DNA of 64,000 bases from Candidatus Poribacteria bacterium (GTDB lineage Bacteria; Poribacteria; WGA-4E; GCA-2687025): assembly GCA_963665845.2 (NCBI GenBank), contig OY762492.1:2016001-2080000 (forward strand). The letters are read 5' to 3'. Below the pieces are notes generated by a model that saw only the letters and a list, made by a program, of their open reading frames with translations, did no database searches and had not been told where the DNA came from. The position numbers and the translations under genes were made by a program. Below are positions 7,724 through 57,211 of this stretch, in pieces. The first letter of the stretch is position 1, and the number at the start of each line of letters is the position of its first letter.

Positions 7724-7752
7724 ATTGTAACTGGTCGCTGAATGCGCGTCAA
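7724..7752 (-). promoter_or_regulatory. Putative sigma70 promoter of PD40 gene
   Basis: TTGACG-17bp-TACAAT. Confidence 0.7.
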
Positions 7753-7767
7753 TATAGGCGCGAAGCG

Positions 7768-8031
7768 GACAGTCTCTATACGATGTTTTTGATTTTAGAG
7801 GGTTCCGTTTTGGAATGCGGACGCGGTCTGGGAAAACTCTGGATTCCCGCTTGCGCGGGAATGCATGTCCTCGCGGAAGCGGGGAACGAATAGCCCAATC
7901 ACAGCGGTTGGGGCGCGGTTTCTGGACTCCCCCCTTGAAAAAGGGGGCTGGGGGGGTTTTAGTTCCGGGCGCGGAATCGCGATTAGCAAAACTCAAACGG
8001 ATTTTCGTCGTCGTCGCCTATAGAGACTGCC
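7768..8031. mobile_element. MITE family B copy 1
   Basis: Ends GACAGTCTCTATACG...CGCCTATAGAGACTGCC; homologous (inverted) to 24986-25204; no TSD seen. Confidence 0.8.
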
Positions 8032-8046
8032 CGCATAATAAAATTC

Positions 8047-8075
8047 TTGCGGCGCGCGGGCGGAACCGCTAACAT
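8047..8075 (+). promoter_or_regulatory. Putative sigma70 promoter of J-domain gene operon
   Basis: TTGCGG-17bp-TAACAT with AT-rich upstream tract. Confidence 0.5.
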
Positions 8076-8110
8076 ACTGCATGTCTCAATAGACGCGGCA
8101 TAGATATTTT

Positions 8111-9388
8111 ATGAAAGATTACTATCGCATTTTACAGGCGCACCGAGAGGCGGATCAGGAAACGATCAAAGCCGCCTACCGGTCCTTGACGCGGCGGGTT
8201 CACCCTGACAAGAACCCGAACAACCGCGAATGGGCGGAAGAGCGCATGCGCGAAATCAACGAGGCGTACCATGTGTTGAGCGACGGCGCCAAACGCGCCG
8301 CCTTCGACAGAGAGTATCCCGCCTCATCCCCGAAGAGCGGCTCCGCGTCCAACGAAAAGCTGCTGTTGACGCTGGAACAGAACCGCGCCTTGCGCGATCG
8401 GGTTCAGAAGCTGACGGCGCATCTTGAACGTCAAAGCAAGGAGACGAGCGAACTTCAACAGCAGCTGAAAGAATCGGTACAACGCCGCGAGCGTCTCGAG
8501 AAGGAGCTGGCGGTGGAACGGGAGCGGAATAAGCTGCTTCGGCGCGGCTCTACATCTTCCGCCAAGAAGAAGAAAAACACGCGGATCGGGAAGACGAAGC
8601 AGACAGCGGAAGAGAGTATGGAGACGCGGGTCATGCAGCTGCCCGGCAGCTCCGCGACGATGGTTTTCGTCCGCATACCCGCTTCCATATTTGAAATGGG
8701 CAGCGCGGTCGGAAATCCAGACGAACGCCCTGTTCATCAAGCGGCGCTGGACCAGTTTTGGATCGGCGCCGAACCTGTAACCTGCAGTCAGTTTTCCGCC
8801 TTCGTCAAGACGAACCCGTCATGGAGCAAACGCTCCCTGACTCCCGATCGGCATCCGGACTATCTCAAGCCGTTCAACGGAGACAGCCCCCCGTTCGGAA
8901 AAGAGCGGCATCCTGTGACGCATGTTACATGGACGGCGGCGGCGGCGTTTGCGAAATGGGCTGGTTTTGAATTGCCGACGGAGGCGCAGTGGGAAGGCGC
9001 GGCGCGCGCCGGTCAAGACGGAGAATACGGCGGCGGCAGGTCGTTCATTTCCCCCAACGACGCCAATTTTGCGGGCAAACGGGGCGGAGTCGTCCCGACG
9101 CGCAGCTACCCGCCGAACGCATACGGCGTCTATGAAATGCTCGGCAATGTGTGGGAATGGTGCGCCGATGTCTACGACGCGGCGTTTTACCGCTCCCCAG
9201 AGGCGCTGGAGCCGAACCCGATGCGCGGCGGCGCGGGGGGCGAATCGACGCGCCGCGTTATTCGGGGCGGGTCTTGGCAGAGCCTCTCGTCCGACCTGCG
9301 GGCGTCGGCGCGGGGGCATATGAAAGCGGGAACGGCGTCCATGTTTTGCGGTTTTCGATGCGCGTTTCGCAGTAGCCCATCGTTGTGA
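8111..9388 (+). CDS. J-domain (DnaJ) / coiled-coil / FGE-sulfatase (SUMF1-like) fusion protein
   Basis: DYYRIL..HPD J-domain; LPTEAQWE, PNAYGVYEMLGNVWEW, RGGSW and GFRC. Confidence 0.9.
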   Translation: MKDYYRILQAHREADQETIKAAYRSLTRRVHPDKNPNNREWAEERMREINEAYHVLSDGAKRAAFDREYPASSPKSGSASNEKLLLTLEQNRALRDRVQKLTAHLERQSKETSELQQQLKESVQRRERLEKELAVERERNKLLRRGSTSSAKKKKNTRIGKTKQTAEESMETRVMQLPGSSATMVFVRIPASIFEMGSAVGNPDERPVHQAALDQFWIGAEPVTCSQFSAFVKTNPSWSKRSLTPDRHPDYLKPFNGDSPPFGKERHPVTHVTWTAAAAFAKWAGFELPTEAQWEGAARAGQDGEYGGGRSFISPNDANFAGKRGGVVPTRSYPPNAYGVYEMLGNVWEWCADVYDAAFYRSPEALEPNPMRGGAGGESTRRVIRGGSWQSLSSDLRASARGHMKAGTASMFCGFRCAFRSSPSL

Positions 9389-9400
9389 AGGAGATGCGAG

Positions 9401-10375
9401 TTGAGTCGACCTAAGGTGTTCATAACGCGACCGCTGCCGCCCGTTGCGGACCCGCTCATTCATCGTCTGCGGGAGACATGCGAGGTTGAGATTTGGCATT
9501 CGATGGAGGAACCCGCGCCGACAGCGGAGAAGATACGCGCCCTGGACGGCTTGGCGACCTACGGGCATGAACCAATCACCGACGCGATGATGGCGGAAGC
9601 GCCCAACTTAAAGGTGATCTCCAATATCGGCGTCGGGCATGACCATATCGACTCGGAGGCGGCGCGGCGGAGGGGCGTCGCTGTCGGCAACACCCCGGGC
9701 GTTTTGAGCGGCGCGACCGCCGATATGACCTTCGCGCTGCTGCTGGCGGGGGCGCGTCTGCTGGGTCCGTCTAACCGATATGTCCGCGCGCGTCAGTGGC
9801 GCTCTTACGACCCGAACCTGTTTTGGGGCAGCGAGGTTCATCATTCAACGATCGGCATTGTCGGCATGGGGCGCATCGGTTATGAGGTGGCGAAGCGCGC
9901 CCGCGGCTTCGACATGAACATATTATATTACAAGCGGAATCGGCGCGCGGACTGGGAGCGGGAGCTGGGAATGTCTTACGCGCCGCTGAATGAGTTGCTG
10001 GAGGCGTCCGATTTTGTAACGCTGCATGCGCCGATGTCGCCTGAAACGAAAGAGATGATCGGAGCGGCGGAGCTGAAGCGGATGAAGCGGACGGCCGTTT
10101 TGGTGAACGCGGCGCGCGGCGGAATCGTCGACCATGCGGCGCTGTATGAAGCGTTGACATCGGGCGAGATTGCGGCGGCGGCGCTGGATGTGACGGAGCC
10201 AGAACCGCTTCCGCTCGATAGCCCGTTGATCGATCTGGACAATTGTTTCATCGCGCCGCATCTGGGCAGCGCGACGGTGGAAACGCGGTTGAAAATGATA
10301 CAAATGGCGTTGGATAATTTAATGGCGGGGCTGAACGGAAAACCGCTGCCTTACTCGGTTTTGGAACCTACATGA
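9401..10375 (+). CDS. D-2-hydroxyacid dehydrogenase (glyoxylate reductase/D-glycerate dehydrogenase family)
   Basis: GMGRIG, VNAARG, ALDV.EPEP and PHLGSAT. Confidence 0.93.
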   Translation: MSRPKVFITRPLPPVADPLIHRLRETCEVEIWHSMEEPAPTAEKIRALDGLATYGHEPITDAMMAEAPNLKVISNIGVGHDHIDSEAARRRGVAVGNTPGVLSGATADMTFALLLAGARLLGPSNRYVRARQWRSYDPNLFWGSEVHHSTIGIVGMGRIGYEVAKRARGFDMNILYYKRNRRADWERELGMSYAPLNELLEASDFVTLHAPMSPETKEMIGAAELKRMKRTAVLVNAARGGIVDHAALYEALTSGEIAAAALDVTEPEPLPLDSPLIDLDNCFIAPHLGSATVETRLKMIQMALDNLMAGLNGKPLPYSVLEPT

Positions 10376-11079
10376 TGAGCTCATACGAGAAAATAAGCGT
10401 CGTCATCCCGGTCTATAACGAAAAAGCGACTCTGCTCGAAATCATCGAAAAGGTGCGCTCGGCGGATGTGGCGGGTCTTGAAAAAGAGATTGTGCTGGTG
10501 GACGACTATTCAACGGACGGCTCGCGCAATATGCTGCAGGAAATCGAAGCGTCCGAGCCGCCCGACCTGCGCTTCGGCTACCATGAGGCGAATCAAGGCA
10601 AGGGCGCCGCGCTGCGCACCGGCTTTGAGATCGCGTCCGGCGATCTGATCATCATTCAGGACGCCGATCTGGAGTACAACCCTGACGAGTATCCGAAGCT
10701 GCTGGAGCCGCTGCTGTCGGACGAGGCGGATGTGGTGTACGGGTCGCGTTTTCTGAAGGGCGCGCAGAGCGAGGCGTGGCACACCTTCGGCAACCGCTTT
10801 TTGACGGCGGTTTCAAACCTGTTCACCGGGCTGAAGTTGACCGACATGGAGACATGCTACAAGCTGATGCCGGCGGAGGTGGTGAAGAATATCCCGCTGC
10901 GCTCCGACCGGTTCGGCTTTGAGCCGGAGATCACGGCAAAGCTGGCGCGCCGGCGCATGCGAATCGTGGAGCGTCCGATCACATACAGCCGGCGCGGATA
11001 CGACGAGGGAAAGAAGATCAACTGGAAAGACGGAGCCGCCGCGATCTACCACATCATACGGTACCGCATCGCCGACTAA
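10372..11079 (+). CDS. GT2 glycosyltransferase (polyprenol-phosphate glycosyltransferase-like)
   Basis: VVIPVYNE, VDDYSTDGS, NQGKGAA, QDADLEY and TDMETCYK. Confidence 0.92.
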   Translation: MMSSYEKISVVIPVYNEKATLLEIIEKVRSADVAGLEKEIVLVDDYSTDGSRNMLQEIEASEPPDLRFGYHEANQGKGAALRTGFEIASGDLIIIQDADLEYNPDEYPKLLEPLLSDEADVVYGSRFLKGAQSEAWHTFGNRFLTAVSNLFTGLKLTDMETCYKLMPAEVVKNIPLRSDRFGFEPEITAKLARRRMRIVERPITYSRRGYDEGKKINWKDGAAAIYHIIRYRIAD

Positions 11080-11089
11080 GAGACGGTCG

Positions 11090-11279
11090 CTGACCTTATG
11101 CATAAAGTAGGGACATTTGAATTGACGATCGCTCTATTCATGGGAAAAAGGCTTCGCCAACCAGACCGTCCCCCGCTTACGCGAGGGCATGCATTCCCGC
11201 GTAAGCGGGAATCTAGAGGCGGCGAAGAAGACGTCCGCGTTCGCCCGCCAGCATGTCCCTACTTAAGACGTGAGGTCAG
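11090..11279. mobile_element. MITE family A, full length with 22-nt insert
   Basis: TIRs CTGACCTTATGCATAAAGTAGGGACAT / ATGTCCCTACTTAAGACGTGAGGTCAG; internal ATTCCC-N8-GGGAAT. Confidence 0.85.
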
Positions 11280-11348
11280 ACAGTTTCTATGCGCGGCTAA
11301 AACCCCCCTAGCCCCCCTTTTCAAGGGGGGAATCGGACGAGGCGGGGG

Positions 11349-14262: not shown

Positions 14263-14286
14263 ATCAAGCGCTTTCTACTGTTTGAG

Positions 14287-14829: not shown

Positions 14830-14866
14830 CTCATAACTCCTATAACGCTCATGGAGCGGTTTCAGT

Positions 14867-15298: not shown

Positions 15299-15316
15299 GT
15301 TTTTCTCCTCTCCTGT

Positions 15317-16333: not shown

Positions 16334-16340
16334 ACGCTTT

Positions 16341-16874: not shown

Positions 16875-16888
16875 GAATCTGCCTCGCG

Positions 16889-17536: not shown

Positions 17537-17703
17537 GACGCATCGCTCTCCGTCTTCAGAATTTGCGTTGCTTTGAGTTGATCATAGCGCATTGAGGCGC
17601 GCGATGCAAACGGCCGATCCATGCTGTCCCCCGCTTCCGCGAGGGCATGCATTTCCGCGCAAGCGGGAATCTTAAGGCGTCGCAGCCGTTGCGCCCGCCC
17701 TTT

Positions 17704-17870
17704 AAACCCCCCTAGCCCCCCTTTTCAAGGGGGGAATCGGAGGAGGCGCCCCTTTTCAAGGGGAAATCGGAGGCGGCGCCCCTTTTCAAGGGAGGAATCG
17801 GAGGAGGCGCCCCTTTTCAAGGGGAATCGGAGGAGGCGACGCCATTTTCAAGGGGAATCGGAGGAGGCGG
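17704..17870. repeat. Tandem array (5 x ~30 bp) of CCCCTTTTCAAGGGG hairpin repeat
   Basis: Unit GGCGCCCCTTTTCAAGGGGAATCGGAGGA; last unit supplies the WD40 stop codon. Confidence 0.9.
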
Positions 17871-19824: not shown

Positions 19825-19854
19825 ATCGTAACACGGCGCCGGGCGGGGCGTCAA
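19825..19854 (-). promoter_or_regulatory. Putative sigma70 promoter of WD40 gene
   Basis: TTGACG-18bp-TACGAT with TGn extension. Confidence 0.6.
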
Positions 19855-19864
19855 GACTGCAGAG

Positions 19865-19954
19865 CTGACCTTACGTCTTAAGTTGGGACATGTCGGCATT
19901 CGAACGCGGGCGTCGCTGTCGGCGCCTCTGGATTCCCGCTTGCGCGGGAATGAC
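19865..19954. mobile_element. MITE family A half copy
   Basis: TIR CTGACCTTACGTCTTAAGTTGGGACAT; homology stops at the palindrome. Confidence 0.75.
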
Positions 19955-20048
19955 AAGAGGGGATGCGGGAATGACGGCTTGGTTGGCGGCGCCTTGCGTC
20001 AGCGGCGTCGGCGGGGTATCGTTACCGCAACGCGCGGAGGAAAGGCGC

Positions 20049-20897: not shown

Positions 20898-20921
20898 ACC
20901 TGACGTTGACGCTTGAGTTAT

Positions 20922-24985: not shown

Positions 24986-25204
24986 GGCAGTCTCTATAGG
25001 CGATGATGTACGAAAATCCTGTTTGAGGGCGCAGCGAAACCCCCCCAGCCCCCCTTTTCAAGGGGGAATCTAGAAACCCGCGCCTTACCGTCGTCATCGG
25101 GCGGCTGTCATTCCCCCGTAAGCGGGAATCCAGAGTTTTTTCCAGACAGGCTCCGCATTCCAAAACGGACTTCTAAAGTCAAATCATCGCCTGTAGGTAC
25201 TGCC
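24986..25204. mobile_element. MITE family B copy 2 with 8-bp target-site duplication
   Basis: 22-bp imperfect TIRs GGCAGTCTCTATAGGCGATGAT / ATCATCGCCTGTAGGTACTGCC; TTTAATCT at 24978-24985 and 25205-25212. Confidence 0.9.
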
Positions 25205-25213: not shown

Positions 25214-25302
25214 CTGACCTTGCGTCTTAAGTTGGGACATGTCGGAGGGCGGACGCGGACGGCGTCTGCGACGCCTAAGATTCCCGCTTGCGCGGGAATG
25301 AC
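25214..25302. mobile_element. MITE family A half copy
   Basis: TIR CTGACCTTGCGTCTTAAGTTGGGACAT running to the palindrome. Confidence 0.75.
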
Positions 25303-25398
25303 GGCCTGGTTCGCGGCGCGCGGGAAATAAAAATTGGCAGTTGCGGGGCGTCTTGAGTTATACTTGAGAATCGCGGTACAAATGTAAGGAGAGCCGAG

Positions 25399-29987: not shown

Positions 29988-30155
29988 CTGACCTCATGTC
30001 TTTAGTGGGGACATGTCGGCATGGAAACGCGGACGGTTTCGGGGTGGACTCTGGATTCCCGCTTACGCGGGAATGACGACCAGGTTGATGACGCTTTTTT
30101 CCCATGAATAGAGAGGTCATTCGTTCAAATGTCCCAACTTTCGGCGTGAGGTCGG
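29988..30155. mobile_element. MITE family A, full length (168 bp)
   Basis: Both TIRs present; flanked by direct repeat GTTTGA. Confidence 0.85.
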
Positions 30156-34801: not shown

Positions 34802-34874
34802 AACGAAAACTCCCTTCGTCAAAACCTGCTGAACAGCATAACGCATGCGCCGCATGAGCGCAACCGTTCCACGC

Positions 34875-35028
34875 CCCCATCGCGTCATTCCCGCGTAAGC
34901 GGGAATCTTAAGGCGCCGCAGCCGCCGCGCCCGTCCTTTAAACCCCCCATCGCGTCATTCCCGCGCAAGCGGGAATCTTAAGGCGCCGCAGCCGCCGCGC
35001 CCGTCCTTGCGGTAAACGCGCGGGAATC
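34875..35028. repeat. Tandem ~70-bp duplication of palindrome-containing module
   Basis: CCCCATCGCGTCATTCCCGCG..CCCGTCCTT present twice, followed by a half palindrome. Confidence 0.85.
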
Positions 35029-35125: not shown

Positions 35126-35293
35126 CTGACCTCATGCTGAAAGTCGGGACATTTGAACGAATGATCGCTCTATTCATGGGAAAAAAGCGTCATCAACCAG
35201 GTCGTCATTCCCGCGTAAGCGGGAATCTAGAGGCGCCGCAGAAGACGTCCGCGTTCGCATGCCGACATGTCCCAACTTTAGGAATGAGGTCAG
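35126..35293. mobile_element. MITE family A, full length (168 bp)
   Basis: Both TIRs present; flanks ATGAAAG / ATGAAAA. Confidence 0.85.
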
Positions 35294-35307
35294 ATGAAAA
35301 GTGTTGA

Positions 35308-36047
35308 CGCGTTTCGGACCGCCGGCTAACGCTGACGGCGCCGCGCTGGTCGCCCAACGGGCAGTGGCTTGTGTGCCGCGGCTCCTCCGGCGACGGCAGG
35401 GTCAAGCCGCTGGACATCTACAAGTTGAACGTTTCGTCTGCCAAAGTCGTCAACTTGACAAGATCGCCGAATGAAAACGACGATTGGCCCTCATTTTCGC
35501 CGGACGGCAAGAAGATTCTGTTCTCCTCCGCTCGCGGCGATCAGGACAACAGAGTTTCGGACATCTATATCATGGACGCCGACGGACGAAACGAAGTGAA
35601 CCTGACAAACCATCCAGCCGGCGATTCCACACCGGAATGGTCTCCGGACGGCAAGAGAATCGCGTTCAAATCCTCTCCTAGGATTCGGTCCAACGAGGAG
35701 AAGGGGCATGACATCTATCTCATGAACGCGGACGGGTCGGAGGTGGAGCGGCTCACAACCGACGCGCGCTGGAAGACCGTGCGGAGCTGGTCTCCGGACA
35801 GCAAATGGATTTTGACCGGCATTCAGCTTCCTTGGGACGACAATCGGTATCAGATTCACCGCGTCCATGTGGAGACGAAACAGATTGTCAAGATCACGCG
35901 CGCCGATGAGTTCGTCTTCAGCGAGTTGGGTTTTGGCGGGCAAGGGCCGCTTCCTCTCCATTGATCCGGCGGGTAAAAAAAGCGGAATGGGGAGCGTTGA
36001 AAGCGGCGGACCGTAGCGATAATCAAACTCCGCAAGACGGCGACTAA
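35308..36047 (+). pseudogene. 5'-truncated, doubly frameshifted PD40 paralog
   Basis: WSPNG/FSPDG repeats without signal peptide; WVLAGKGRFLSIDPAGK and AEWGALK lie in shifted frames. Confidence 0.8.
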
Positions 36048-39672: not shown

Positions 39673-40794
39673 ATGGCGCATGTGGAGCTTCGCGGGATCG
39701 CCAAGCATTTCGGCAAGACGATCGCCGTCAAGCGTCTCGACATGGAGATTCATGAGGGGGAGTTTGTGTCGCTGCTCGGTCCCTCCGGGTGCGGCAAGAC
39801 GACGACGCTGCGCATCGCCGCGGGACTCGAGACGCCGACCGCGGGAGAGGTGCTGTTTGACGGAAAGCGGGTGACGCATTTGTCGCCCGCCGAGCGGAAC
39901 ATTGCGATGGTGTTTCAGCTGCGCGCGCTGTATCCGCATATGACGGTGCGGGCGAATGTGGCGTTTCCGCTGCGCGCCGAACGTCTGCCGCGCGCCGAGA
40001 TCGCCGCCCGCGTGGAGCGCGCCGCGAAGTGGATGCGCATAGAGCATGTCCTTGACATGACGCCGTCCGCCGTTCATCCAGCCGACGCCCAACGCGCCGC
40101 CATTGCGAAGGCGATGGCGCGCGATCCCGCCCTGTTTCTTTTTGATGAGCCGTTTTCGCGGCTGGACGCGCAGTTGCGCGCTCAAATGCGGATCGAAATC
40201 AAACGCGCCCACCGCGAAACGGGGCGCGCCGCCGCGTTCGTCACCCATGACCAAGCGGAAGCGCTCGCCATCTCCGACCGCGTCGCCGTCATGCGCGAGG
40301 GCGAACTTGTCCAAATCGGAACGCCCGCGCAGATCTTCGATGAGCCGTCTCACCGCTACACCGCCGAGTTTGTCGGCTCGCCGCCCATCAACATGCTGGA
40401 GGCGGAGCTGACGCAGGAGAACGGCGGTCTCCGCCTGCGCATCGCCGGGCAGACGATACAGGTCGAGGACGGCATGGGGTTGAACGGCTGGGACGGTCCG
40501 CGCCGTTTTTTGGTCGGGATGCGACCCCGGCGGATCGCGCTCATGCCGCCGGACGACGCCGAGGGAGATGCGCTGCGCGGCGTCATCGACCTGCTGGAGC
40601 CGATGGGGCGCGAGACGCTGGCGCACATACGCCTGTCGCCGGACGCCGAGGCGCGCTGCCTCTATCCGCGCCAGGAGCGGTGGGAGGAGCGCTGGAGGGA
40701 GGGGGACGCCGCCGCCCTGCGCATTGACGCGCCGCGCATGACCTTCTTTGACGCGGAGACAGGGGCGGCGTTGAAACGGCGGGCGACGCCATGA
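39673..40794 (+). CDS. MalK-like ABC transporter ATP-binding protein with degenerate signature
   Basis: GPSGCGKT, LFLFDEP, VTHDQ and C-terminal TOBE-like domain; no LSGGQ. Confidence 0.88.
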   Translation: MAHVELRGIAKHFGKTIAVKRLDMEIHEGEFVSLLGPSGCGKTTTLRIAAGLETPTAGEVLFDGKRVTHLSPAERNIAMVFQLRALYPHMTVRANVAFPLRAERLPRAEIAARVERAAKWMRIEHVLDMTPSAVHPADAQRAAIAKAMARDPALFLFDEPFSRLDAQLRAQMRIEIKRAHRETGRAAAFVTHDQAEALAISDRVAVMREGELVQIGTPAQIFDEPSHRYTAEFVGSPPINMLEAELTQENGGLRLRIAGQTIQVEDGMGLNGWDGPRRFLVGMRPRRIALMPPDDAEGDALRGVIDLLEPMGRETLAHIRLSPDAEARCLYPRQERWEERWREGDAAALRIDAPRMTFFDAETGAALKRRATP

Positions 40795-46319: not shown

Positions 46320-46348
46320 AGTATAGCAAACGCCGGGCAAGATTGCAA
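46320..46348 (-). promoter_or_regulatory. Putative sigma70 promoter of ftsH operon
   Basis: TTGCAA-17bp-TATACT with TGn. Confidence 0.72.
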
Positions 46349-46359
46349 ACGAGATTCTA

Positions 46360-46526
46360 CTGACCTGACGCCTAAAGTTGGGACATGTTGGCATGCGAAC
46401 GCGGACGTCTTCTGCGGCGCCTCTAGATTCCCGCTTACGCGGGAATGACGACCTGGTTGATGACGCTTTTTTCCCATGAATAGCGCGGTCATCGTTCAAA
46501 TGTCCCGACTTTCAGCATGAGGTCAG
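46360..46526. mobile_element. MITE family A, full length, between divergent promoters
   Basis: Both TIRs present; no TSD. Confidence 0.85.
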
Positions 46527-46538
46527 AGAAAACGCCTG

Positions 46539-46567
46539 TTGAATCCGCCGACGCTTCATGTTAGAGT
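46539..46567 (+). promoter_or_regulatory. Putative sigma70 promoter of Ser/Thr kinase gene
   Basis: TTGAAT-17bp-TAGAGT with TGn. Confidence 0.55.
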
Positions 46568-46632
46568 GGGCATGGCAGTTGGGCAGGAATTCATTTCGCT
46601 GCTGGGCGAATGTCGCGGGCGGGGTTGATCGA

Positions 46633-48483
46633 ATGGCGTTCGATTCGCGGGGCTTTGAAAAATACTATGTTGAAAAGGTGAAGCAGCGCGGCATGTTCCG
46701 CTGCCTCGCCGACAAGTACCGCATCAACGAGTTGGTGGGCGGCGGCTCCTTCTCGGTCGTGTACCGCGCCTCGGAGATACGCGGCAGCCGACGGGTCGCC
46801 GTCAAGGCGCTTCTGCGCGAGGTGTACGACGCGCCCAGCGCCCGCAAATACGCCGAAGCCGAACTGAACGCCATGGGGCAGCTGTGGGACCATCAGAACA
46901 TCGTCTCCGCGCTGACCGTGGAACCCGGCAACGACGAATTTTTAGAGTTCATCGTCATGGAGTATGTGGACGGCGGAAGCCTGGACGCCCGTCTCGACAA
47001 GGGTCCCATGTCCATCCTGGAAGCGCTGGCGGTCGCGCATGACATCTGCAGCGGGCTGGCGCATGCGCATCGGCGCAACATCGTTCACCGCGACATCAAG
47101 CCGAGCAATATCCTCTTGACCTCCGAGGGCGAGGCGAAGGTGTCCGATTTCGGCGTCGCCGAGCTGCGCGAATCGCCCCATGCGTTTCCGTCCACGCTCG
47201 CCGGCACCCGACGCTATATGGCGCCTGAGCAGTATAACGACATGTACGACGAGCGGGTGGATGTGTTCGCGGTCGGCATTCTGCTGTGGGAGATGACGGT
47301 CGGCGTGTTTCCGTATCCCGGCAAAGCGCATGACCATATACAGCGGGCAAAGGAGAACGACCCGGAACCGCCCCCAGATCTGCCCAGCTCCGTGAAAGAT
47401 ATTCTTCATGGAAGTCTGCGCGCCGATCCGTTCGACCGTTTTCGGTCGATGGATGAGATGCTCGCGGCGGTCGAGGATGAGCTGATGAAGGCGTACCGTC
47501 GGGAGGCGCGGGAATGTTATACGTCTAGGGAGCCGCCGCAGGCGGCGCGGTCGCGTTTAGACCCGCTGCGGCGCGCGCTTCGCATCGACGGGCCGGCGGG
47601 CAGGCGGCTTGAGGAGCTGGCGGAGCTGGACGCGCTGCAGACGGCGGAGGATCGAAACGCGGCGCGCGCCCGCGAAGCGGCCTCCGACCTGTCTGATCAG
47701 CTGATGGAATGCGTCATGCGGCGCGACTTCAAAGAAGCTGAAAATCGGGCGAAGGAGCTGGCGGACACCGGAGCCGTTCCAAGATCGGCGCTGAACGCCA
47801 TCGATGGACTGTTGCGTATGTTGAAGGGTCCCTCCTATAGCGTTCCGGCGCCGGTTGAACCGCCTCGTACGCCGCCCCGTATGACCTTGCAGTCGTTCTT
47901 TAACGCGGGGGCGGATCCGGCGGAGTTGCGGGCGGAGGGGCAGCGTCTAGAGTCGCAGCAGAGGTGGCGGCAGGCGCGCGGCGCCTACCAAAAAAGCGCG
48001 AAGCTGTACGCGAAGGAGGGGCAATCGAAGCGCAGCGCGGGCGACCTGTGGCATGCGGCTGAAATGTATGAACTGGCGGGCGATTCCTACCGCAGCGCGC
48101 AGAACAAGCGTCAAAAAGCCCTTCATTTTTGCATCGCCGCGGAATGCTGGATTGAGCATGCGAAGCGGATGGGCAGCCGTCGGGAGCGGGTCGCCGGGGC
48201 GGAGATCTACCGCAGCGCCGCGCGCGCCTATGAGCAGGCGGAGAATGAGGAGCGCGCGCGGGAGTGTTATCAGTCGGCGGCAAGCTTGTTGTATCAGGCG
48301 GCGCAGGAGCGCATCGGCAAGGGCGATCTTCAAAAGGCGAAAACATACGCCTTGAGCGCGCTGGACTTGTCCAAAAAAACGGGCGCCTGGACGCAGGCGG
48401 AGACGTCGCGCCGCCTCCTGTCGCTCATTCGTCAGCGCGAGGAGCGCAAGACAAGCGATTCGCCGACCGACGCCGCGCCTTAA
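46633..48483 (+). CDS. Hanks-type Ser/Thr protein kinase with C-terminal TPR/SNAP-like helical repeats
   Basis: GGGSFS, VAVK, HRDIKPSN, DFG and YMAPE; no TM segment. Confidence 0.92.
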   Translation: MAFDSRGFEKYYVEKVKQRGMFRCLADKYRINELVGGGSFSVVYRASEIRGSRRVAVKALLREVYDAPSARKYAEAELNAMGQLWDHQNIVSALTVEPGNDEFLEFIVMEYVDGGSLDARLDKGPMSILEALAVAHDICSGLAHAHRRNIVHRDIKPSNILLTSEGEAKVSDFGVAELRESPHAFPSTLAGTRRYMAPEQYNDMYDERVDVFAVGILLWEMTVGVFPYPGKAHDHIQRAKENDPEPPPDLPSSVKDILHGSLRADPFDRFRSMDEMLAAVEDELMKAYRREARECYTSREPPQAARSRLDPLRRALRIDGPAGRRLEELAELDALQTAEDRNAARAREAASDLSDQLMECVMRRDFKEAENRAKELADTGAVPRSALNAIDGLLRMLKGPSYSVPAPVEPPRTPPRMTLQSFFNAGADPAELRAEGQRLESQQRWRQARGAYQKSAKLYAKEGQSKRSAGDLWHAAEMYELAGDSYRSAQNKRQKALHFCIAAECWIEHAKRMGSRRERVAGAEIYRSAARAYEQAENEERARECYQSAASLLYQAAQERIGKGDLQKAKTYALSALDLSKKTGAWTQAETSRRLLSLIRQREERKTSDSPTDAAP

Positions 48484-48575
48484 ACCCCCCTAGCCCCCCT
48501 TTTCAAGGGGGGAATCAGAGGCGCGCCCCTTTTCAAGGGGGAAATCAGAGGCGCGCCCCTTTTCAAGGGGGAATC
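48483..48575. repeat. CCCCTTTTCAAGGGG hairpin array (3 units)
   Basis: Three ~30-bp units. Confidence 0.88.
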
Positions 48576-48729
48576 TGACCTCACCCTTAGAGTCGGGACA
48601 ATTCTGGTTGTGAACACGGAAGGTTTCGGGGTAGACTCTGGATTCCCGCTTGCGCGGGAATGACGGTTTGGTTGGCGAAGCCTTTTCCCATAAATGGAGC
48701 GATCATTTGTTCAGATGTCCCAACTTTAG
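48575..48729. mobile_element. MITE family A copy overlapping WD40 stop codon
   Basis: Left TIR CTGACCTCACCCTTAGAGTCGGGACA; right TIR truncated. Confidence 0.8.
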
Positions 48730-50675
48730 CGGCTGTCCATATCCGTAATATCCCAAAGAAGCGCTGTTCCGTCTGCGCTGCCGCTGAGGAGCGTTTTCCC
48801 GTCCGGCGAATAGGCGACCGAACTGACGCCGCTTCGATGCCCTTCGAGCGTTTTGAGCTGCGCGCCCGTTTCGACATCCCATATGCGAATGGTCCTGTCC
48901 CCCAAGCCGCCGCCGCTAGCAATCGTCTTCCCGTCCGGCGAGTAGGCGACAGCGCGGACGTTGGAAATATGCCCTTTGAGCGTTTTGAGCGGCGCGCCCG
49001 TTTCGACATCCCAAATCTGAACCGCATCATTGAATCCGCCGCTGGCAATCGTCTTCCCGTCCGGAGAAAAAGCGGCGCAAATAATATAGTCTACATCTTT
49101 ATGGATGGATTGGATAAGCGCGCCGGTGGCGGCGTCCCAAATATGGACGGCGCCCTTGTAGACGGGAAGCCCGCCCGCGCCCGCAATCGTTTTCCCGTCC
49201 GGAGAATAGGCGGCGAACGTATACTCGAACGCAAGATCGCTGGAAGCTATGTCTCCTTTGAGCCTCTTTAATAGCCCTGCGCCCCCGCCGAAGGAGTCCG
49301 CGTCCCAGACTCGAACCTCCTCGTCGGGTCCTGGGCTGACGAAGGTCTTGCCGCTTGGGGAATAGGCAACCGAGGCGATCCGCGCCTCGCTGCCTTCGAA
49401 CGATTGCAGCGCGCTTCCATCGGCGGCGTCCCAGAGGCGTATCCCGCCGTAGGAGTCCCCGCTGACAATGCGCGACCCGTCGGGCGAAAACGCGGCAGAC
49501 AGGACGTTGGGACCATGCCCTGTGAGCGTTTGAATTGCCTTGCCGGTTTCGGCGTCCCATATTCGAACGACATAGTCGCCGCCGCTGTTGCCATGCGCGC
49601 TGACGATCGTTTTTCCATCCGGCGAAAAAACGGCGGAATGGGGCATTGCCGTGAATCCGTCTATTCTTCGCACGATAGCGCCGAATTTAACGTTCCAAAT
49701 GCGTATCGGATCCGCGCCCCCTGCGCCCGCCATAAAATGCCCGTCCGGCGAAAACGCGATCGTTTCTGTCGAACTGCGATGCTCTTCAAACGGCGGAAGA
49801 GGTGCGCCCGAAATAGAGTTCCATAAACGCAATTCGTTTAACCCTCCGCTTGCGAGGCGTCTGCCGTCCGGCGAATACGCGACCGATTCTATCCAGTCTT
49901 CGTTCTCTGCAAGCCTTTTGATAAGCGTTCCCGTCGCCGCGTCCCAGACGCGTACCGTTTTATCCGATCCAGAACTCCCGCTGGCGAGCGTTTTGCCGTC
50001 CGGCGAGTAGGCGATGGAATAGATCATACTCATATGATCTCTAAGAGTCCGTATCGGTTCGCCCGTTTCAACGTCGTAGAGATATACGGCGTTCTCGCCG
50101 TTGAAAGAAAAGTCTGCGCATGCGAGCGTTTTGCCGTCCGGCGAGTAGGCGATGGCAACTATTCGGCTCATTTCCCCTTCAAGCGTCCGTATCGGTTCGC
50201 CCGTTTCGACGTTCCAGACGCGTACCTTTCCGTTGTCGCATCCGCTGGCGAGCGTTTTGCCGTCCGGCGAGTAGGCAACCGAAAAAATGCGAATGCTGTG
50301 GCCTGTAAGCGTCTTAAGCAGCGCGCCTGTTTGCGCGTCCCAGACGCATACGGTTGTGTCGAGGCTGCCGCTGGCGAGCGTTTTGCCGTCGGGCGAGTAA
50401 GCGACTGACATAACAGGCGCGGTGTGGGCTTGAAGCAGAGCGGTTTCAGCGCCTGTCCCCGCGTCGTAAATCCAAATGCCGAGGCTGCCGCCGGCCGCTA
50501 GGCTTCGGCTGTCGGGCGAGTAGGCGATCTGCTGGATAGAGCCTTTACCGAGTCGCATTTTGGCGCCGTCGGGCAGGTTCATCTGCGAGCCTTGCGCTTG
50601 AGCGTACGCCGCAAAGACGCTCAACGCCAGAACGCATGCGGCTGCCCAATAAACCTCATGTTTCCATTTGCTCAT
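48726..50675 (-). CDS. Secreted WD40-repeat protein (paralog of 17848-19797)
   Basis: Signal peptide ending AQA, LPDGAKMRLGKG and many AYSPDG repeats. Confidence 0.92.
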   Translation of the reverse strand: MSKWKHEVYWAAACVLALSVFAAYAQAQGSQMNLPDGAKMRLGKGSIQQIAYSPDSRSLAAGGSLGIWIYDAGTGAETALLQAHTAPVMSVAYSPDGKTLASGSLDTTVCVWDAQTGALLKTLTGHSIRIFSVAYSPDGKTLASGCDNGKVRVWNVETGEPIRTLEGEMSRIVAIAYSPDGKTLACADFSFNGENAVYLYDVETGEPIRTLRDHMSMIYSIAYSPDGKTLASGSSGSDKTVRVWDAATGTLIKRLAENEDWIESVAYSPDGRRLASGGLNELRLWNSISGAPLPPFEEHRSSTETIAFSPDGHFMAGAGGADPIRIWNVKFGAIVRRIDGFTAMPHSAVFSPDGKTIVSAHGNSGGDYVVRIWDAETGKAIQTLTGHGPNVLSAAFSPDGSRIVSGDSYGGIRLWDAADGSALQSFEGSEARIASVAYSPSGKTFVSPGPDEEVRVWDADSFGGGAGLLKRLKGDIASSDLAFEYTFAAYSPDGKTIAGAGGLPVYKGAVHIWDAATGALIQSIHKDVDYIICAAFSPDGKTIASGGFNDAVQIWDVETGAPLKTLKGHISNVRAVAYSPDGKTIASGGGLGDRTIRIWDVETGAQLKTLEGHRSGVSSVAYSPDGKTLLSGSADGTALLWDITDMDSR

Positions 50676-50706
50676 GCCGCCCTCCGACGATTTAAACACG
50701 TCTCTG

Positions 50707-50735
50707 ACGATAAGGCATGTTGCGCTGGGCGTCAA
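50707..50735 (-). promoter_or_regulatory. Putative sigma70 promoter of WD40 gene
   Basis: TTGACG-17bp-TATCGT. Confidence 0.6.
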
Positions 50736-50745
50736 GCCCGCCGGT

Positions 50746-50772
50746 CTGACCCCGCCCCTTGAGTTCGGACAT
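50746..50772. mobile_element. MITE family A solo TIR remnant
   Basis: CTGACCCCGCCCCTTGAGTTCGGACAT. Confidence 0.55.
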
Positions 50773-50980
50773 TTCTGAATGCGAATCCAGAGGCATCGCA
50801 GCCGCCGCGCGGCTAAAACCCCCCTAACCCCCTTTCAAGGAGGGAATCAGAGGCGCGCCTCTTTATCAAGGGGGAATGATGCGCGGTTGCGTTTCCGCTT
50901 CATTCGGCGTATGCTGTTTATGAAACGAAAGCCGGCGGCGCGCCGCGGGCAAATTGAACATCGCGATTTGGAGAGAATCA

Positions 50981-51775: not shown

Positions 51776-51800
51776 ACATGTCAGGACGGGATGAAAGAAG

Positions 51801-53132: not shown

Positions 53133-54042
53133 AACGGCGCTGCTCATCTGCGCTTTATGGACGGCGCCCGATGCGGCAGCCGACACCATCGCCTTCGCCT
53201 CCGACCGTTCAGGCGGATGGGCGTTATACGGCATCAACCTGAACGGCGGACCGGCGCGGCTCATCATCGACACGGACGGCTCCGACTTTCACCCGTCCTG
53301 GTCGCCGGACGGAACGCGGCTCGCCTTTTTTTCTTCTATAGGGGCGACAGCGAACCTTTACACAATCCGCGCGGACGGCTCCGATCTCCAACAGATCACC
53401 TTCGGAGAATGGATCGACAAGGCGCCTGCATGGTCGCCGGACGGAGAATGGATCGCCTTCAGCTCCGACCGCGCCGGCGGGTTCGACCTGTATCTCGTAC
53501 GCCCGGACGGGACGGATACGCGCCGCCTGACGAATCATCCAGAAGACGACAAGCTGCCGGCATGGTCGCCGGACGGAACGCGGCTCGCCTTCGCAACCGT
53601 ACGGGGCGGCAACACAGACATTCGCCTTTTCAATATAGAGACCCGCGCGGAAACCCGCTTGACCGACCATGCGCGGTACGACTGCTACCCGTCCTGGTCG
53701 CCGGACGGGGAGAGCCTCGCGTTCGCTTCAGACCGAGACGGCGATTTCGACATCTACCGCCTCAACCTAAAGACAAAAGAGACCGCCTTGTTAACAAAGA
53801 ACGATCTGGACGACGCCTTTCCGTCCTGGTCGCCGGACGGCTCCAAGATCGTTTATCAGACCGAGACGGAGGAGGGAAACTGGGCGGTGGCGCGGATGAA
53901 CGCCGACGGCTCGAATGTTGAGCGTTTGACCCGTTCAGACGGCTGGGACACGAAGCCTGTCTGGCGCCCGGGCGTTTTGTCAGCGGATTTACAGCGGCAT
54001 AAGCCGTTTTACTGGGCGCTGTTGAAGCGCCGCGCCGATTAA
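53044..54042 (+). CDS. Secreted PD40/TolB-like beta-propeller (start uncertain)
   Basis: IAFASDR, five P[SA]WSPDG repeats; divergent tail SADLQRHKPFYWALLK. Confidence 0.85.
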   Translation: MFETFKDTWRGGTGGGIRRGFAERCGLCVKTALLICALWTAPDAAADTIAFASDRSGGWALYGINLNGGPARLIIDTDGSDFHPSWSPDGTRLAFFSSIGATANLYTIRADGSDLQQITFGEWIDKAPAWSPDGEWIAFSSDRAGGFDLYLVRPDGTDTRRLTNHPEDDKLPAWSPDGTRLAFATVRGGNTDIRLFNIETRAETRLTDHARYDCYPSWSPDGESLAFASDRDGDFDIYRLNLKTKETALLTKNDLDDAFPSWSPDGSKIVYQTETEEGNWAVARMNADGSNVERLTRSDGWDTKPVWRPGVLSADLQRHKPFYWALLKRRAD

Positions 54043-54096
54043 TATGATAACGTTAGGCGTTGCAAACATTTCAACAATGCAGGAGTAAAGCAGAAA

Positions 54097-54774
54097 ATGA
54101 AACGACTAATATGCGTTGCCGCTCTCGGCGCGGCTGCTGTCCTGGCGCAGGCGGCGGATGTGGCGCTCGAGGCGGAACTGGGCGATCTGGAGGAGCCGAT
54201 GGTCATCGCCGTTCCAGCCGACGCGGCGGCAGAAGGCGGACACGAACCGGATGAACCGTCGCGCGGCAAATTCGTCTGGGTAGCCGGACCGCCGGCCTCC
54301 GGCGGAAACGACCATGTCGGCTGGGTCTCGTTTGATTTCAGCGTCGCGGCGGCGGGCGAATACGCTGTATGGGGGCGCATCGTCGCCTGGGACGGCAACA
54401 GCGACTCCTTCTGGGTGAAAATCGAAGGCGCCGACCCTGACGAGCAGCCCCAAGAATCGCAGAACACCCACTTCCGATGGAGTACCTCGAAAAACAACAA
54501 CTGGCATTGGGACCGCGTCAACCAGTGGCTGGACGGCGGAACGTTCGCTCGAGTCTGGGAACTGGCGGCGGGCGATCACACGCTGATCATTTACTCGCGC
54601 GAATCGGCGGCGATGCTGGACACCGTCTTCATCACCGACAACCTGTCCGAAAACGAAGCGGATGTGCCGCTGCGAACGCCGACCGACGAAGATGTCGCAA
54701 TTCAGACGGGTCAACCGACCAATGTGGAGCCGAAAGGCAAGCTCGCGGCGGTCTGGGCGGAACTAAAACGGTAA
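54097..54774 (+). CDS. Secreted CBM-like (galactose-binding-fold) protein, paralog 1
   Basis: Signal peptide, LEAE, GEYAVWGR, NSDSFW and HTL..RE...LD; ends VEPKGKLAAVWAELKR. Confidence 0.75.
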   Translation: MKRLICVAALGAAAVLAQAADVALEAELGDLEEPMVIAVPADAAAEGGHEPDEPSRGKFVWVAGPPASGGNDHVGWVSFDFSVAAAGEYAVWGRIVAWDGNSDSFWVKIEGADPDEQPQESQNTHFRWSTSKNNNWHWDRVNQWLDGGTFARVWELAAGDHTLIIYSRESAAMLDTVFITDNLSENEADVPLRTPTDEDVAIQTGQPTNVEPKGKLAAVWAELKR

Positions 54775-54813
54775 ACTTGAGCGCGTTGAGAACCTCGCAT
54801 GAAAGGAATAAAG

Positions 54814-55515
54814 ATGAGAATGCTGCATTATGGAGCTTTGGCGGCGGCCGCGCTATGCCTCTGCCTCGCGGCGGCGCAAGCGGACGAGATCGCGCTAGAA
54901 GCGGAGCTGTCGCTTGAAATTGAAGAACCGATGGTCATCGCCGTCCCAGACGACATTGAGGAGCATGGCGGACCGAAACCGAATGAACCGTCCAACGGAA
55001 AGTTTATCTGGCGGCCAGGTCCGCCCGCGTCGGGCGGCGGCGACCATGAAGGTTCCGCGCGGTTCACATTTCCCATCAAAGATGCCGGAACCTATCGGAT
55101 CTTCGGGCATGTGGTCGCTTGGGACGGCAACAGCGACTCGTTCTGGTTCGCCGTTTATCAGGACGGAAACGGCGAGGCAGACCAGGACATGGAGCCGAAC
55201 GCGACGCAGGACACGAATTACCGTTGGAGCGTCTCGAAAGGCAACAACTGGCACTGGGACCGCGTCAACCACTGGCTGGACGGCGGCACCTTTGAGCGCA
55301 TGTGGGAGCTGGAGGAAGGATTGGTCACCATCGCCGTATGGAACCGCGAATCGGCGACGATGCTGGACGCGCTCTACATCACAGACGATGAGCAAGCCGT
55401 CACAGGCGTTCTCCCGACCGACGCGGACAGGGAACGGCAGCGGAGCAACTTCAACCTGAGCGTCGATCCGAGCGGGAAGTTGACGTCCACATGGGCGACT
55501 CTCAAAACGCGCTGA
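54814..55515 (+). CDS. Secreted CBM-like protein, paralog 2
   Basis: Same motifs; ends SVDPSGKLTSTWATLKTR. Confidence 0.75.
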   Translation: MRMLHYGALAAAALCLCLAAAQADEIALEAELSLEIEEPMVIAVPDDIEEHGGPKPNEPSNGKFIWRPGPPASGGGDHEGSARFTFPIKDAGTYRIFGHVVAWDGNSDSFWFAVYQDGNGEADQDMEPNATQDTNYRWSVSKGNNWHWDRVNHWLDGGTFERMWELEEGLVTIAVWNRESATMLDALYITDDEQAVTGVLPTDADRERQRSNFNLSVDPSGKLTSTWATLKTR

Positions 55516-55541
55516 CGGGTCATAATTGGGAAGGATGAACC

Positions 55542-56243
55542 ATGCGCATGTTGTCGATCGGCGCATTCGCGGCGGCTCTTTCGTTCGCCTTCTTGTCAGC
55601 CGACGGCGCCGAGTTGGCGCTGGAGGCGGAGCTGGCGCAGACGATCGTCCGTCCAATGCAGGCGGCGGTTCCGGAAAGCGCTGTCAACAGAGGCGGACCG
55701 AAGCCTAAGAACCCGTCGAACGGAAAATTTATCTGGGCGCCGGGCGCTCCAAATCAGAACGGCGGCAACTCCGGCTATGCGCGTTTCACCGTTCCGATTG
55801 AAAACAAAGGCTCCTATAGGCTGTTCGGCCATGTGATCGCCTGGGACAACCGCAGCGACACGTTCTGGGTGACCATATGGCAGGACGGCAACCGCAAAGC
55901 CGACCAGGACCGAAACCCGCAGCGATCCAGGAACCGAGAATACCAGTGGAGGCTGCGCCCCAGAAGCCCCTCGTGGGTTTGGGACCGCGTCGATCAACGG
56001 CTCGCCGCCGGCGGCAGGATGGACCGCGTCTGGGAGCTGAAAGAGGGGTTGGCGGTCATCACGGTCTGGACGAACGAAAACGCCGCGATGCTGGACGCGC
56101 TTTACCTGACCGACGATGCGACGGCGAGGACGGGCAGACTTCCAACCAAACAAGAACGCGATCTGCAGAGCCGAAACTTCGACCTCGGCGTCGACCCGAA
56201 AGGCAAACTGGCGTCCGCATGGGGGCAAATGAAGGCGCGTTAA
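55542..56243 (+). CDS. Secreted CBM-like protein, paralog 3 (basic)
   Basis: Same scaffold, Arg/Lys-rich; ends GVDPKGKLASAWGQMKAR. Confidence 0.75.
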   Translation: MRMLSIGAFAAALSFAFLSADGAELALEAELAQTIVRPMQAAVPESAVNRGGPKPKNPSNGKFIWAPGAPNQNGGNSGYARFTVPIENKGSYRLFGHVIAWDNRSDTFWVTIWQDGNRKADQDRNPQRSRNREYQWRLRPRSPSWVWDRVDQRLAAGGRMDRVWELKEGLAVITVWTNENAAMLDALYLTDDATARTGRLPTKQERDLQSRNFDLGVDPKGKLASAWGQMKAR

Positions 56244-56262
56244 ACCCGCTTTCAGCAAGCCT

Positions 56263-56949
56263 GTGAATAGATTCGTTCGGTTCAAGTTCTGGGTGAAGCG
56301 GCGCCGATGGCTTTACGCGCTCGCGTCATGCCCATGCCCCGCGCCGTATTGGGACGCCGAACTGCGCCGGCGGACGCGCGAATGGGGTCAAGAGGCGCGG
56401 GTCTTAGACCTCGGCTCGGGCGAACGCAAGCGCGCCCCGCATTTCATCAACCTAGAAATCAAGCCCGTCCCGAACGTGGATGTTGTTGGGGACGGGCATT
56501 CTCTTCCGTTCGCCGACGGGTCGTTCGATGCGGTCATCGCCGAAGCGGTGCTGGAGCATGTGCTTGACCCTGTCCGCGTCGCGGACGAGATAGATCGGAC
56601 GCTGGCGCCGGGGGGAGTCGTCTGCGCGGCGGTTCCGTTTTTACAGCCTTACCACCCCTCGCCGCTGGATCTGCAGCGGTGGACGCTGGAGGGGTTTGAG
56701 GCGCTCTTTTCGGAGTATGAGATACTCAAAAGCGGCTCATGCGTCGGACCGACGGCGGCGCTTCTTTGGGCGTTTCGAGAGTGGCTGGGGCTGCTGCTTT
56801 CGTTTGGAAACATCTGGGTTGCGAAGGCGGTCGGCTGGCTGTTCGGGTGGCTGCTCTCCCCGCTGCTGCTGCTCGATTACTGGCTCGTTCGCCGTCGGGA
56901 CGCGCATCGTCTTGCGGGCGCCGTGTATGTGATCGCGCGGAAGAGATAG
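56263..56949 (+). CDS. Class I SAM-dependent methyltransferase
   Basis: VLDLGSG, LPFADGSFD and AVLEHV. Confidence 0.88.
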   Translation: MNRFVRFKFWVKRRRWLYALASCPCPAPYWDAELRRRTREWGQEARVLDLGSGERKRAPHFINLEIKPVPNVDVVGDGHSLPFADGSFDAVIAEAVLEHVLDPVRVADEIDRTLAPGGVVCAAVPFLQPYHPSPLDLQRWTLEGFEALFSEYEILKSGSCVGPTAALLWAFREWLGLLLSFGNIWVAKAVGWLFGWLLSPLLLLDYWLVRRRDAHRLAGAVYVIARKR

Positions 56950-56960
56950 CCGTTCCTTGC

Positions 56961-57173
56961 TGTCATTCCCGCGCAAGCGGGAATCCAGAGGCGCGCCCAA
57001 CGCTTCGCATTCTCCATCTGCGCCGTTTCCCCGGATCGTCATTCCCGCGTAAGCGGGAATCTAGAGGCGCCGCCAACCAAACCGTCATTCCCGCGTAAGC
57101 GGGAATCCAGAGTCTACCCCGAAACCGTCCGCGTTCACAACCAGAATTGTCCCAACTCTAAGGATGAGGTCAG
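56961..57173. repeat. Three ATTCCC-N8-GGGAAT palindromes plus partial MITE A
   Basis: Cores at 56965, 57041 and 57086; TIR ending GAGGTCAG at 57173. Confidence 0.85.
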
Positions 57174-57182
57174 CAGTCTGGT

Positions 57183-57211
57183 TTGACGAAGCCGCCGCTT
57201 CCGCCTATACT
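57183..57211 (+). promoter_or_regulatory. Putative sigma70 promoter of PPK2 gene
   Basis: TTGACG-17bp-TATACT. Confidence 0.75.

Follow-up and report, generated by a model that had tools for sequence, protein, structure and literature searches.

Miniature transposable elements of a Poribacteria genome lie at a fixed register upstream of predicted sigma70-type promoters

Miniature transposable elements with inverted-repeat ends (MITEs) of three families, here called A, B and C, end at family-specific and nearly constant distances upstream of predicted sigma70-type promoters in a genome of Candidatus Poribacteria. We consider it probable that these elements inserted at a fixed register relative to the promoter, likely by docking of the transposase on a promoter occupied by the RNA polymerase holoenzyme. 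The window, the whole stretch of 64,000 nucleotides (nt) that was analysed, is C1:2016001-2080000 of genome G000 (3.98 Mb, 3 contigs, ~60% G+C, 89.96% complete); the element counts below refer to all of G000, and a 790-kb sample of a sister genome of the same genus, G001, which is ~90% identical in genes, was used for comparison. Family A has the shared terminal inverted repeats, the target duplication and the autonomous partner with the same ends that define MITEs; families B and C have the shared ends and the duplication, and an autonomous partner was not found in G000.

Family A ends were collected as matches to a 27-nt inverted-end consensus, CTGACCTYAYGYCTWWAGTTGGGACAT, with at most 7 mismatches. 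The resulting 453 ends formed 125 paired copies (82 of 166-169 bp and 24 of 188-190 bp) and left 203 solo ends. Reading outward from these ends, TTG occurred 63, 74 and 31 times at gaps of 9, 10 and 11 nt, compared with 3-18 times at each other offset between 0 and 59, and TTGAC occurred 69 times at gaps 9-11, compared with 34 times over the remaining 57 offsets combined. The enrichment was limited to the outward orientation, as the reversed motif GTCAA was found 0, 0 and 1 times at gaps 9, 10 and 11. We compared these values with those at 40,000 random, strictly intergenic positions of G000. TTG at 9-11 was present at 168 of the 453 ends and at 4.75% of the random positions (binomial P = 1e-100); when a -10 box was also required, the values were 108/453 and 0.33% (P = 4e-162). 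Left-type ends faced TTG in 102 of 248 cases and right-type ends in 58 of 154, so that either end can face a promoter. The near-constant spacing that an earlier note had described in the window is thus a property of the whole genome: the distribution of distances is not flat, and the peak at 9-11 lies far above chance. In the sample of the sister genome, TTG was found at 9-12 in 36 of 61 ends, including 25 of the 44 ends whose matching place in G000 has no A end at the same mismatch limit; at many of the latter places, the same promoter is adjoined by a diverged A end or by a different repeat family.

When 185 flanks were aligned on TTG, they showed TTGAC(A/G), a 17-nt spacer and T(114) A(126) n n a T(117), some with a G two bases before the -10 box; in other words, they read TTGACA-N17-TATAAT. 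The genome encodes an RpoD protein of 561 amino acids (aa) with a canonical region 4.2. A gene start lay no more than 400 nt ahead of 139 of the 185 TTG-facing ends (median 75 nt), compared with 148 of the 268 other ends, according to crude gene calls. An additional target motif, C-G-C before TTG, was considered and rejected, since promoters free of repeats have the same C/G/C there.

We then asked which promoter-like sites carry an element. Sites in strictly intergenic, non-repeat DNA were scored as occupied if an A or B/C end lay at its canonical offset, and a -10 box was called at 4 or more of 6 matches, including A2 and T6, with a spacer of 16-18. TTGAC sites with a -10 box were occupied in 50 of 214 cases, compared with 10 of 766 without one (odds ratio 23, P = 7e-26), and occupancy dropped with declining -10 quality from 27% through 21% and 9% to 1.3%. 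The -10 box is ~30 bp away from the joint. The target must therefore be the whole promoter, the -35 plus the -10 box, and not TTGAC alone. Because occupancy depends on the -10 box, we consider a promoter occupied by polymerase a likelier landmark than naked TTGAC.

The ends of families B and C fit GGCAGT-N8-GCGATG, and their conservation stops at ...CTGCC. TTG was located exactly 15 nt past the end in 46 of 102 B ends and 34 of 101 C ends. Under a stricter definition of the B/C end, it was found at 15 nt in 64 of 168 cases and at any other offset in 7 or fewer, and in the sister genome sample in 5 of 20 B/C ends. The duplication was 8 bp in 12 of 20 and 8 of 13 pairs, with one further case of 9 bp. 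A gap of 15 nt from the tip together with a duplication of 8 bp places the B/C joint 7 bp upstream of the -35 box. As for the element that mobilizes B and C, the same 54-nt end with a B/C-type tip closes several contigs of the sister genome (loci L138-L140; C2:1-54, C12:1-54, C12:38263-38316 and C30:31-55), with TTG at 15 nt in the flanks in C2 and C30. Judging from these sequences, this end probably belongs to an unassembled multi-copy autonomous element, a candidate B/C driver. Genes for ISKra4-like transposases in genomes of the same family were checked at two loci, and both were without the B/C end pattern. Two 822-bp elements of G000 (C1:1868311-1869132 and C1:2900231-2901052), in which the longest open frame has 164 aa, also carry perfect family B ends.

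The length of the target-site duplication varies in family A, and this variation reveals which of the two joints is anchored. Perfect duplications were found at 53 of the 125 A pairs: 24 of 6 bp, 20 of 7, 5 of 8, 2 of 9 and 2 of 5. In copies with a promoter on one side, the gap equalled the duplication plus 3 in 11 of 12 cases with a 6-bp duplication, 16 of 17 with 7 bp, 3 of 3 with 8 bp and 2 of 2 with 9 bp. Accordingly, the duplication keeps its promoter-side edge 3 bp upstream of the -35 box's first T, and its far edge floats. Adjacent A copies fit the same rule: 8 of 9 such pairs were spaced 6-8 nt apart, and in three of them the spacer was identical to the outer duplication and was followed by 3 nt and then TTGA. 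Tandem copies one duplication apart are the outcome predicted for a second insertion at the same promoter. In nested stacks, some B/C copies lay between a resident A end and the promoter, and some A copies between a resident B/C end and the promoter; each kept its own offset, which shows that the distance is measured from the promoter rather than from the local sequence.

Seven clean pairs of filled and empty A alleles were available from the comparison of G000 with the sister genome sample. Inspection of the empty alleles, which the earlier note had suggested, showed that two of the seven (C1:402658 and C1:1814196) already hold a -35 box in the sister genome at duplication + 3, where it was predicted. 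Taken together, these results show that insertion is aimed at promoters rather than enriched there by selection.

Copies with promoters on both sides differ in one respect. The earlier note had observed that such copies in the window lack target-site duplications and had regarded this as fitting recombination between copies. The observation holds for 10 of 11 two-sided MITE copies in G000, the exception being C1:1514012, with the arrangement CAA-N3-[6-bp duplication]-N3-TTG, and for 9 of 9 two-sided autonomous relatives (described below), of which 22 of 38 one-sided copies keep the duplication. No reciprocal partners that would point to this cause were found above chance. A search for reciprocal-inversion partners gave 5 matches against 2.5 expected among 72 copies with six-mers, and 14 against 3.7 expected among 347 ends with seven-mers, several of the latter in repeat-derived flanks; neither result is convincing. 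Only three possible intermediates of two-sided copies were found. Recombination between copies nevertheless remains a plausible cause of the missing duplications, and a possible route would be a deletion between two direct copies, each placed at one of two divergent promoters.

A single insertion sequence of 1,267 bp in G000 (C1:561322-562588) carries family A ends together with an open reading frame of 371 aa, which matches PF01609 (DDE_Tnp_1; E = 1.8e-13) and is the sole PF01609 match in the genome. The motif YRGRMTIEESFKDLK was read directly in this frame, and we take it to be the Y-2-R-3-E-6-K signature of the IS4 family. The best NCBIfam model was NF033591 (IS4_2), at 77.7 bits, under the curated IS4 cut-off of 152, and the protein fell below every curated NCBIfam IS4 cut-off; the same model matched all 24 aligned relatives, with the lowest listed E-value of any family (7.7e-29). 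A sequence profile search of solved structures returned no match for the transposase at E-values up to 1. In its AlphaFold2 model (predicted local distance difference test, pLDDT, 79.6; predicted template-modelling score, pTM, 0.80), the top five Foldseek matches were Tn5 transposase entries, the best being 3ecp_A (E = 1.5e-10, template-modelling score 0.56, 16% identity). As modelled, the family A driver is a Tn5-fold DDE transposase. Broadly defined, the IS4 family (IS50/Tn5, IS10/Tn10, IS231 and IS186) is characterized by DDE_Tnp_1, the Y-2-R-3-E-6-K motif and short inverted ends; its members make cut-and-paste style duplications of ~9-12 bp, and their target is a short DNA consensus. The domain, the motif, the short ends and the best fold match to Tn5 are common to the family A driver, whereas its duplication is variable and mostly 6-7 bp, and its target is a promoter register. 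The autonomous element is itself two-sided: one end is 9 nt and the other 11 nt away from a promoter, a duplication is absent, and the transposase frame extends to within the terminal repeat.

Kin of this transposase form at least 175 protein clusters at E ≤ 1e-5; among the 120 clusters listed, which are 43-94% identical, none has a label beyond 'hypothetical protein'. A look-up with the single protein found no relative in genome contigs, whereas an alignment-based scan found 80 loci, mostly in Chloroflexota/Anaerolineae. We used the 51 loci at which both tips of the CTGAnnTTCRGACA type could be placed 1,100-1,350 bp apart (42-51% identity, mostly Chloroflexota). TTG was found at 7-12 on at least one side in 47 of the 51, on one side in 38 and on both in 9, and the offsets among the 102 flanks peaked at 9 (18 flanks), 10 (28) and 11 (6). 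All 19 of the 19 promoter-facing ends of relatives with a perfect duplication obeyed the duplication + 3 rule. Since the same rule holds in relatives from other phyla, the habit belongs to the transposase clade and not to G000 alone. The family A end consensus was absent at one transposase locus, L043 of genome G003. Two of the relatives, L110 and L111, come from short contigs that had been assigned to archaeal bins (Methanoperedens and Bathyarchaeota); L110 has bacterial-type TTGACT-N17-TATACT/TATAAT on its two sides, and this sequence leads us to suspect mis-binning.

The earlier note had left two options for the near-constant gap, guided insertion at the upstream edge of the promoter or co-option of the terminal inverted repeats as regulator sites near -45. 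The former is supported by the duplication + 3 rule, the tandem copies, the empty alleles, the dependence on the -10 box and the relatives. The latter is not needed, because it explains neither the duplication rule nor the use of three families with different ends. With guided insertion, the landmark would be the polymerase/sigma complex on the promoter. In Escherichia coli numbering, the -35 hexamer occupies -35 to -30, so that the family A duplication would fall at ~-39 to -44/-45, beside sigma region 4, and the B/C duplication at ~-43 to -50. Landing upstream of the -35 box would spare both the genes and the core promoter.

Several observations weigh against this explanation. Five of the seven polymorphic A insertions are in the 5' leader, where a ribosome-binding site or ATG follows closely, and not at a promoter (Table 1). 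These may represent either a limit on exclusive promoter targeting, with a second class of target, or a bias from requiring two alignable flanks; a ribosome-binding-site motif showed no peak at a fixed offset from the 259 A ends without TTG at 8-12. One of the five, the recent insertion at C1:3790613, lies 9 nt (duplication + 3) from a TTGCGC with no -10 box. Among complete family A copies, 43-44 of 125 have no promoter at either end, and 8 of the 168 TTG matches belong to the CCTTGAAAAGG hairpin repeat. Ten of the 766 TTGAC sites lacking a -10 box are nonetheless occupied. The spacer is 17 nt in 99 of 118 A cases and 49 of 57 B/C cases, which makes anchoring on the -35 box inseparable from anchoring on the -10 box. 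No B/C driver was found in G000, at its 89.96% completeness, as neither PF00872 nor NF033572 had a match. Every promoter considered here is predicted from sequence, and gene starts in G000 are our own crude calls; two metatranscriptome runs consisted of contigs from a strain 90-99% similar, broken at repeats and hence blind to transcription starts. We infer the role of RNA polymerase as the guide, and with it the contact between transposase and polymerase.

Some of these points would be expected if the transposases read the DNA of the -35 box (TTGAC) directly and promoters were simply the main source of TTGAC at which insertions survive. TTG is the strongest feature of the flanks, its distance to the joint is exact to the base pair, the insertion at C1:3790613 obeys duplication + 3 without a -10 box, ten occupied TTGAC sites also lack one, and a DNA-reading domain would simply explain the same rule in several phyla. 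However, direct reading leaves unexplained why occupancy is graded with the quality of a box ~30 bp from the joint, why A and B/C ends, with unlike duplication lengths and offsets, converge on one landmark, and why weak -35 boxes (TTGCnn, TTGAAn) are used if a -10 box is present. We therefore regard it as unlikely. Near-random intergenic insertion followed by selection, either for a safe place or for ends that took on a role as regulator or UP-like sites around -45, would fit the finding that most of the young polymorphic insertions are off promoters and older copies are enriched there, as expected of filtering over time, and each occupied promoter does gain the same upstream sequence. Nevertheless, a limit of tolerance predicts a step, whereas the observed distribution peaks over 3 nt and is at baseline to either side. 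Selection would also leave unexplained the equality of gap and duplication + 3, the tandems that share one duplication and the same rule in single autonomous copies at 51 loci of other genomes, and the same co-option would have to have arisen in each of three families whose ends are unrelated. Such an origin appears very improbable to us.

The remaining alternative, that the promoter belongs to the element as an outward or hybrid promoter within the repeat, as in Correia elements, is hardly credible. Promoter-like sequence does lie beside many copies, and outward promoters of insertion sequences and MITEs are well known according to the review PMC10969869. Against this, the terminal CTGACC or CTGCC marks the limit of conservation, and between the end and the -35 box come a duplication and a spacer that are not conserved. 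The empty alleles contain the -35 box, and the sequence of the flanking promoter varies among copies.

Fixed-distance insertion upstream of the -35 box has a precedent. According to Guerillot et al. 2014 (Genome Biol Evol, PMC3942029), the conjugative TnGBS elements, ISLre2 (p-MULT 3) and 13 elements of the ISKra4 group (p-MULT 4) insert 15-17 bp upstream of the sigmaA -35 box; by analogy with Ty3, that paper suggests an as yet unproven contact with the polymerase initiation complex. The fixed distance is common to these elements and to the families reported here. Their register of 15-17 bp agrees with that of B/C (15 nt) and differs from that of family A (9-11 nt, mostly 9-10). Their transposase is Mutator-like (p-MULT), in contrast to the Tn5-fold DDE_Tnp_1 protein of family A. 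The ISKra4 group is described there as having near-perfect inverted ends and promoters on both sides, and family A is likewise free in orientation; p-MULT 3 elements are oriented relative to the promoter, whereas family A uses both orientations equally. In contrast to those elements, most A, B and C copies are non-autonomous, and there are hundreds of them. Family A thus represents a known promoter-homing behaviour in a different transposase superfamily and at a different register.

Two further systems are comparable in part. Yeast Ty3, named as an analogy in the same paper (PMC3942029), is tethered to the Pol III factors TFIIIB/TFIIIC, and is alike in concept in its placement, to the base pair, beside an initiation complex, a position that spares genes. 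Ty3 uses a eukaryotic retrotransposon integrase, and its tethering has been shown experimentally, whereas the present families are proposed to be tethered. Correia/NEMIS and other promoter-bearing MITEs, as presented in the review PMC10969869, resemble family A in being abundant, intergenic and immediately upstream of genes; they carry promoters inside, whereas the promoters reported here are outside the element and older than the insertion. The literature searched, whose coverage excludes subscription journals, yielded no paper that describes IS4/Tn5-type elements or bacterial MITEs homing to promoters. Within that literature, base-pair-exact promoter homing by bacterial transposons has so far been published only for the Mutator-like TnGBS/ISLre2/ISKra4 elements. 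The hundreds of MITE copies constitute a large natural data set on this behaviour, and how the transposase finds the promoter is now directly testable, as relatives occur in cultured Anaerolineae (loci L091 and L114). Element ends that point at promoters also provide free promoter annotation for uncultured bacteria, and the system is a possible scaffold for tools of promoter-directed insertion.

Repeats in G000 were called by the depth of self-BLAST matches; exact 11- and 12-mer counts were dropped as a repeat index, because composition alone marks 12-63% of random positions as 'repeated'. Interspersed repeats amount to ~200-230 kb, or ~40% of the intergenic DNA. Of the strong promoter-like sites that lie outside repeats, 366 in number, ~55% carry a repeat between -30 and -100 and none between +12 and +51, and a repeat covers -40 to -12 in 185. 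Of the strong sites that adjoin repeats, 80 are next to a family A end and 109 next to other repeats. The sparing of genes and core promoters would explain how repeats came to fill such a share of the intergenic DNA, and promoter homing would account for this load without gene loss. More tentatively, and with rather less confidence than doubt, we suggest a wider picture in which a widespread, unnamed Tn5-like clade is physically tethered to sigma70 region 4 and RNA polymerase at promoters, at the position of a class II activator, independently of Ty3 and TnGBS. This clade and at least one other lineage might then occupy about half of the strong promoters, and the DNA upstream of ~-40 might consist largely of stacked transposon ends. 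Promoters might thus serve as assembly points for repeats and rearrangements, including the two-sided copies without duplications.

Within the window, the gaps that the earlier note had given for six A ends (Table 1) were re-measured and all hold, including the one with a poor -10 box, TAACGC, at 35293; the distance of 15 bp from both ends of family B copy 1 to divergent -35 boxes was likewise reproduced. The gap of 10 proposed for the A end at 25214 after removal of the nested B copy and one 8-bp duplication stands only in part. At that distance there is indeed a hexamer slot, and a perfect TATAAT follows 17 nt downstream, but the slot reads ATGCGC, and TTGCGT lies 16 nt off in the restored sequence. 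No promoter box was present at the expected gap from 11 of the 17 window A ends. The copy at 46360-46526 is also present in the sister genome (C14:~125879-126168).

Table 1. Family A and B copies, predicted promoters and leader insertions discussed in the text. Positions are those of the window unless a contig is given.
Feature	Position	Strand	Remarks
Predicted promoter TTGACG (7752..7747)-17-TACAAT (7729..7724)	7724..7752	-	15 nt from family B copy 1
Family B copy 1, 264 bp	7768..8031		Divergent promoters 15 nt off each end; no duplication
Predicted promoter TTGCGG (8047-8052)-17-TAACAT	8047..8075	+	15 nt from family B copy 1
Family A variant, 190 bp	11090..11279		Neither side with a promoter
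Predicted promoter TTGACG (19854..19849)-18-TACGAT (19830..19825)	19825..19854	-	10 nt from A end 19865; faces WD40 gene
Family A copy, left end and inner hairpin, truncated	19865..19995	+	27-nt terminal repeat with 1 mismatch; repeat block 19846-19995
Family B copy, 219 bp	24986..25204		8-bp duplication TTTAATCT; nested between promoter region and resident A end
Family A left end	25214..25331	+	Nested B copy separates it from its promoter
Family A copy, complete, 168 bp	29988..30155	+	6-bp duplication GTTTGA; neither side with a promoter (non-promoter class)
Family A copy, complete, 168 bp	35126..35293	-	Paired ends
Weak predicted promoter TTGACG (35304-35309)-17-TAACGC	35304..35332	+	10 nt from A end 35293; poor -10 box
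Predicted ftsH promoter TTGCAA (46348..46343)-17-TATACT (46325..46320)	46320..46348	-	11 nt from A end 46360
Family A copy, complete, 167 bp	46360..46526	+	Paired ends; between divergent promoters; no target-site duplication
Predicted kinase promoter TTGAAT-17-TAGAGT	46539..46567	+	12 nt from A end 46526
Predicted promoter TTGACG-17-TATCGT	50707..50735	-	10 nt from A end 50746; faces second WD40 gene
Degenerate family A end, 6 mismatches	50746..50772	+	Consensus match
Family A left-type end, 7 mismatches	57147..57173	-	Consensus match; edge of hairpin-repeat cluster
Predicted ppk2 promoter TTGACG-17-TATACT	57183..57211	+	9 nt from A end 57173
Leader-type polymorphic A insertions	G000 C1:659587, 2955733, 3002720, 3790613; G001 C14:66800		

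Two kinds of hairpin repeat also occur in the window. Hairpins of the form ATTCCCGC-N4-GCGGGAAT (dRS3/NTS-like) form arrays at 34874-35008, 56952-57138 and 58157-58520, and the same hairpin is an inner module of family A copies, for example at 19930-19952 and 46425-46447. Arrays of CCCCTTTTCAAGGGG hairpins with a period of ~30 nt were located at 17693-17845, 48471-48591 and 62890-63070. The TTGAAA of the latter hairpins produces false -35-like matches beside family A ends, the 8 of 168 mentioned above, and three apparent TTGAAA matches beside window A ends are part of this kind of repeat. Synteny with the sister genome is broken at repeat clusters at ~48485-48727 and 56946-57065, and in that genome a different contig carries the WD40 gene found here at 48726-50735.

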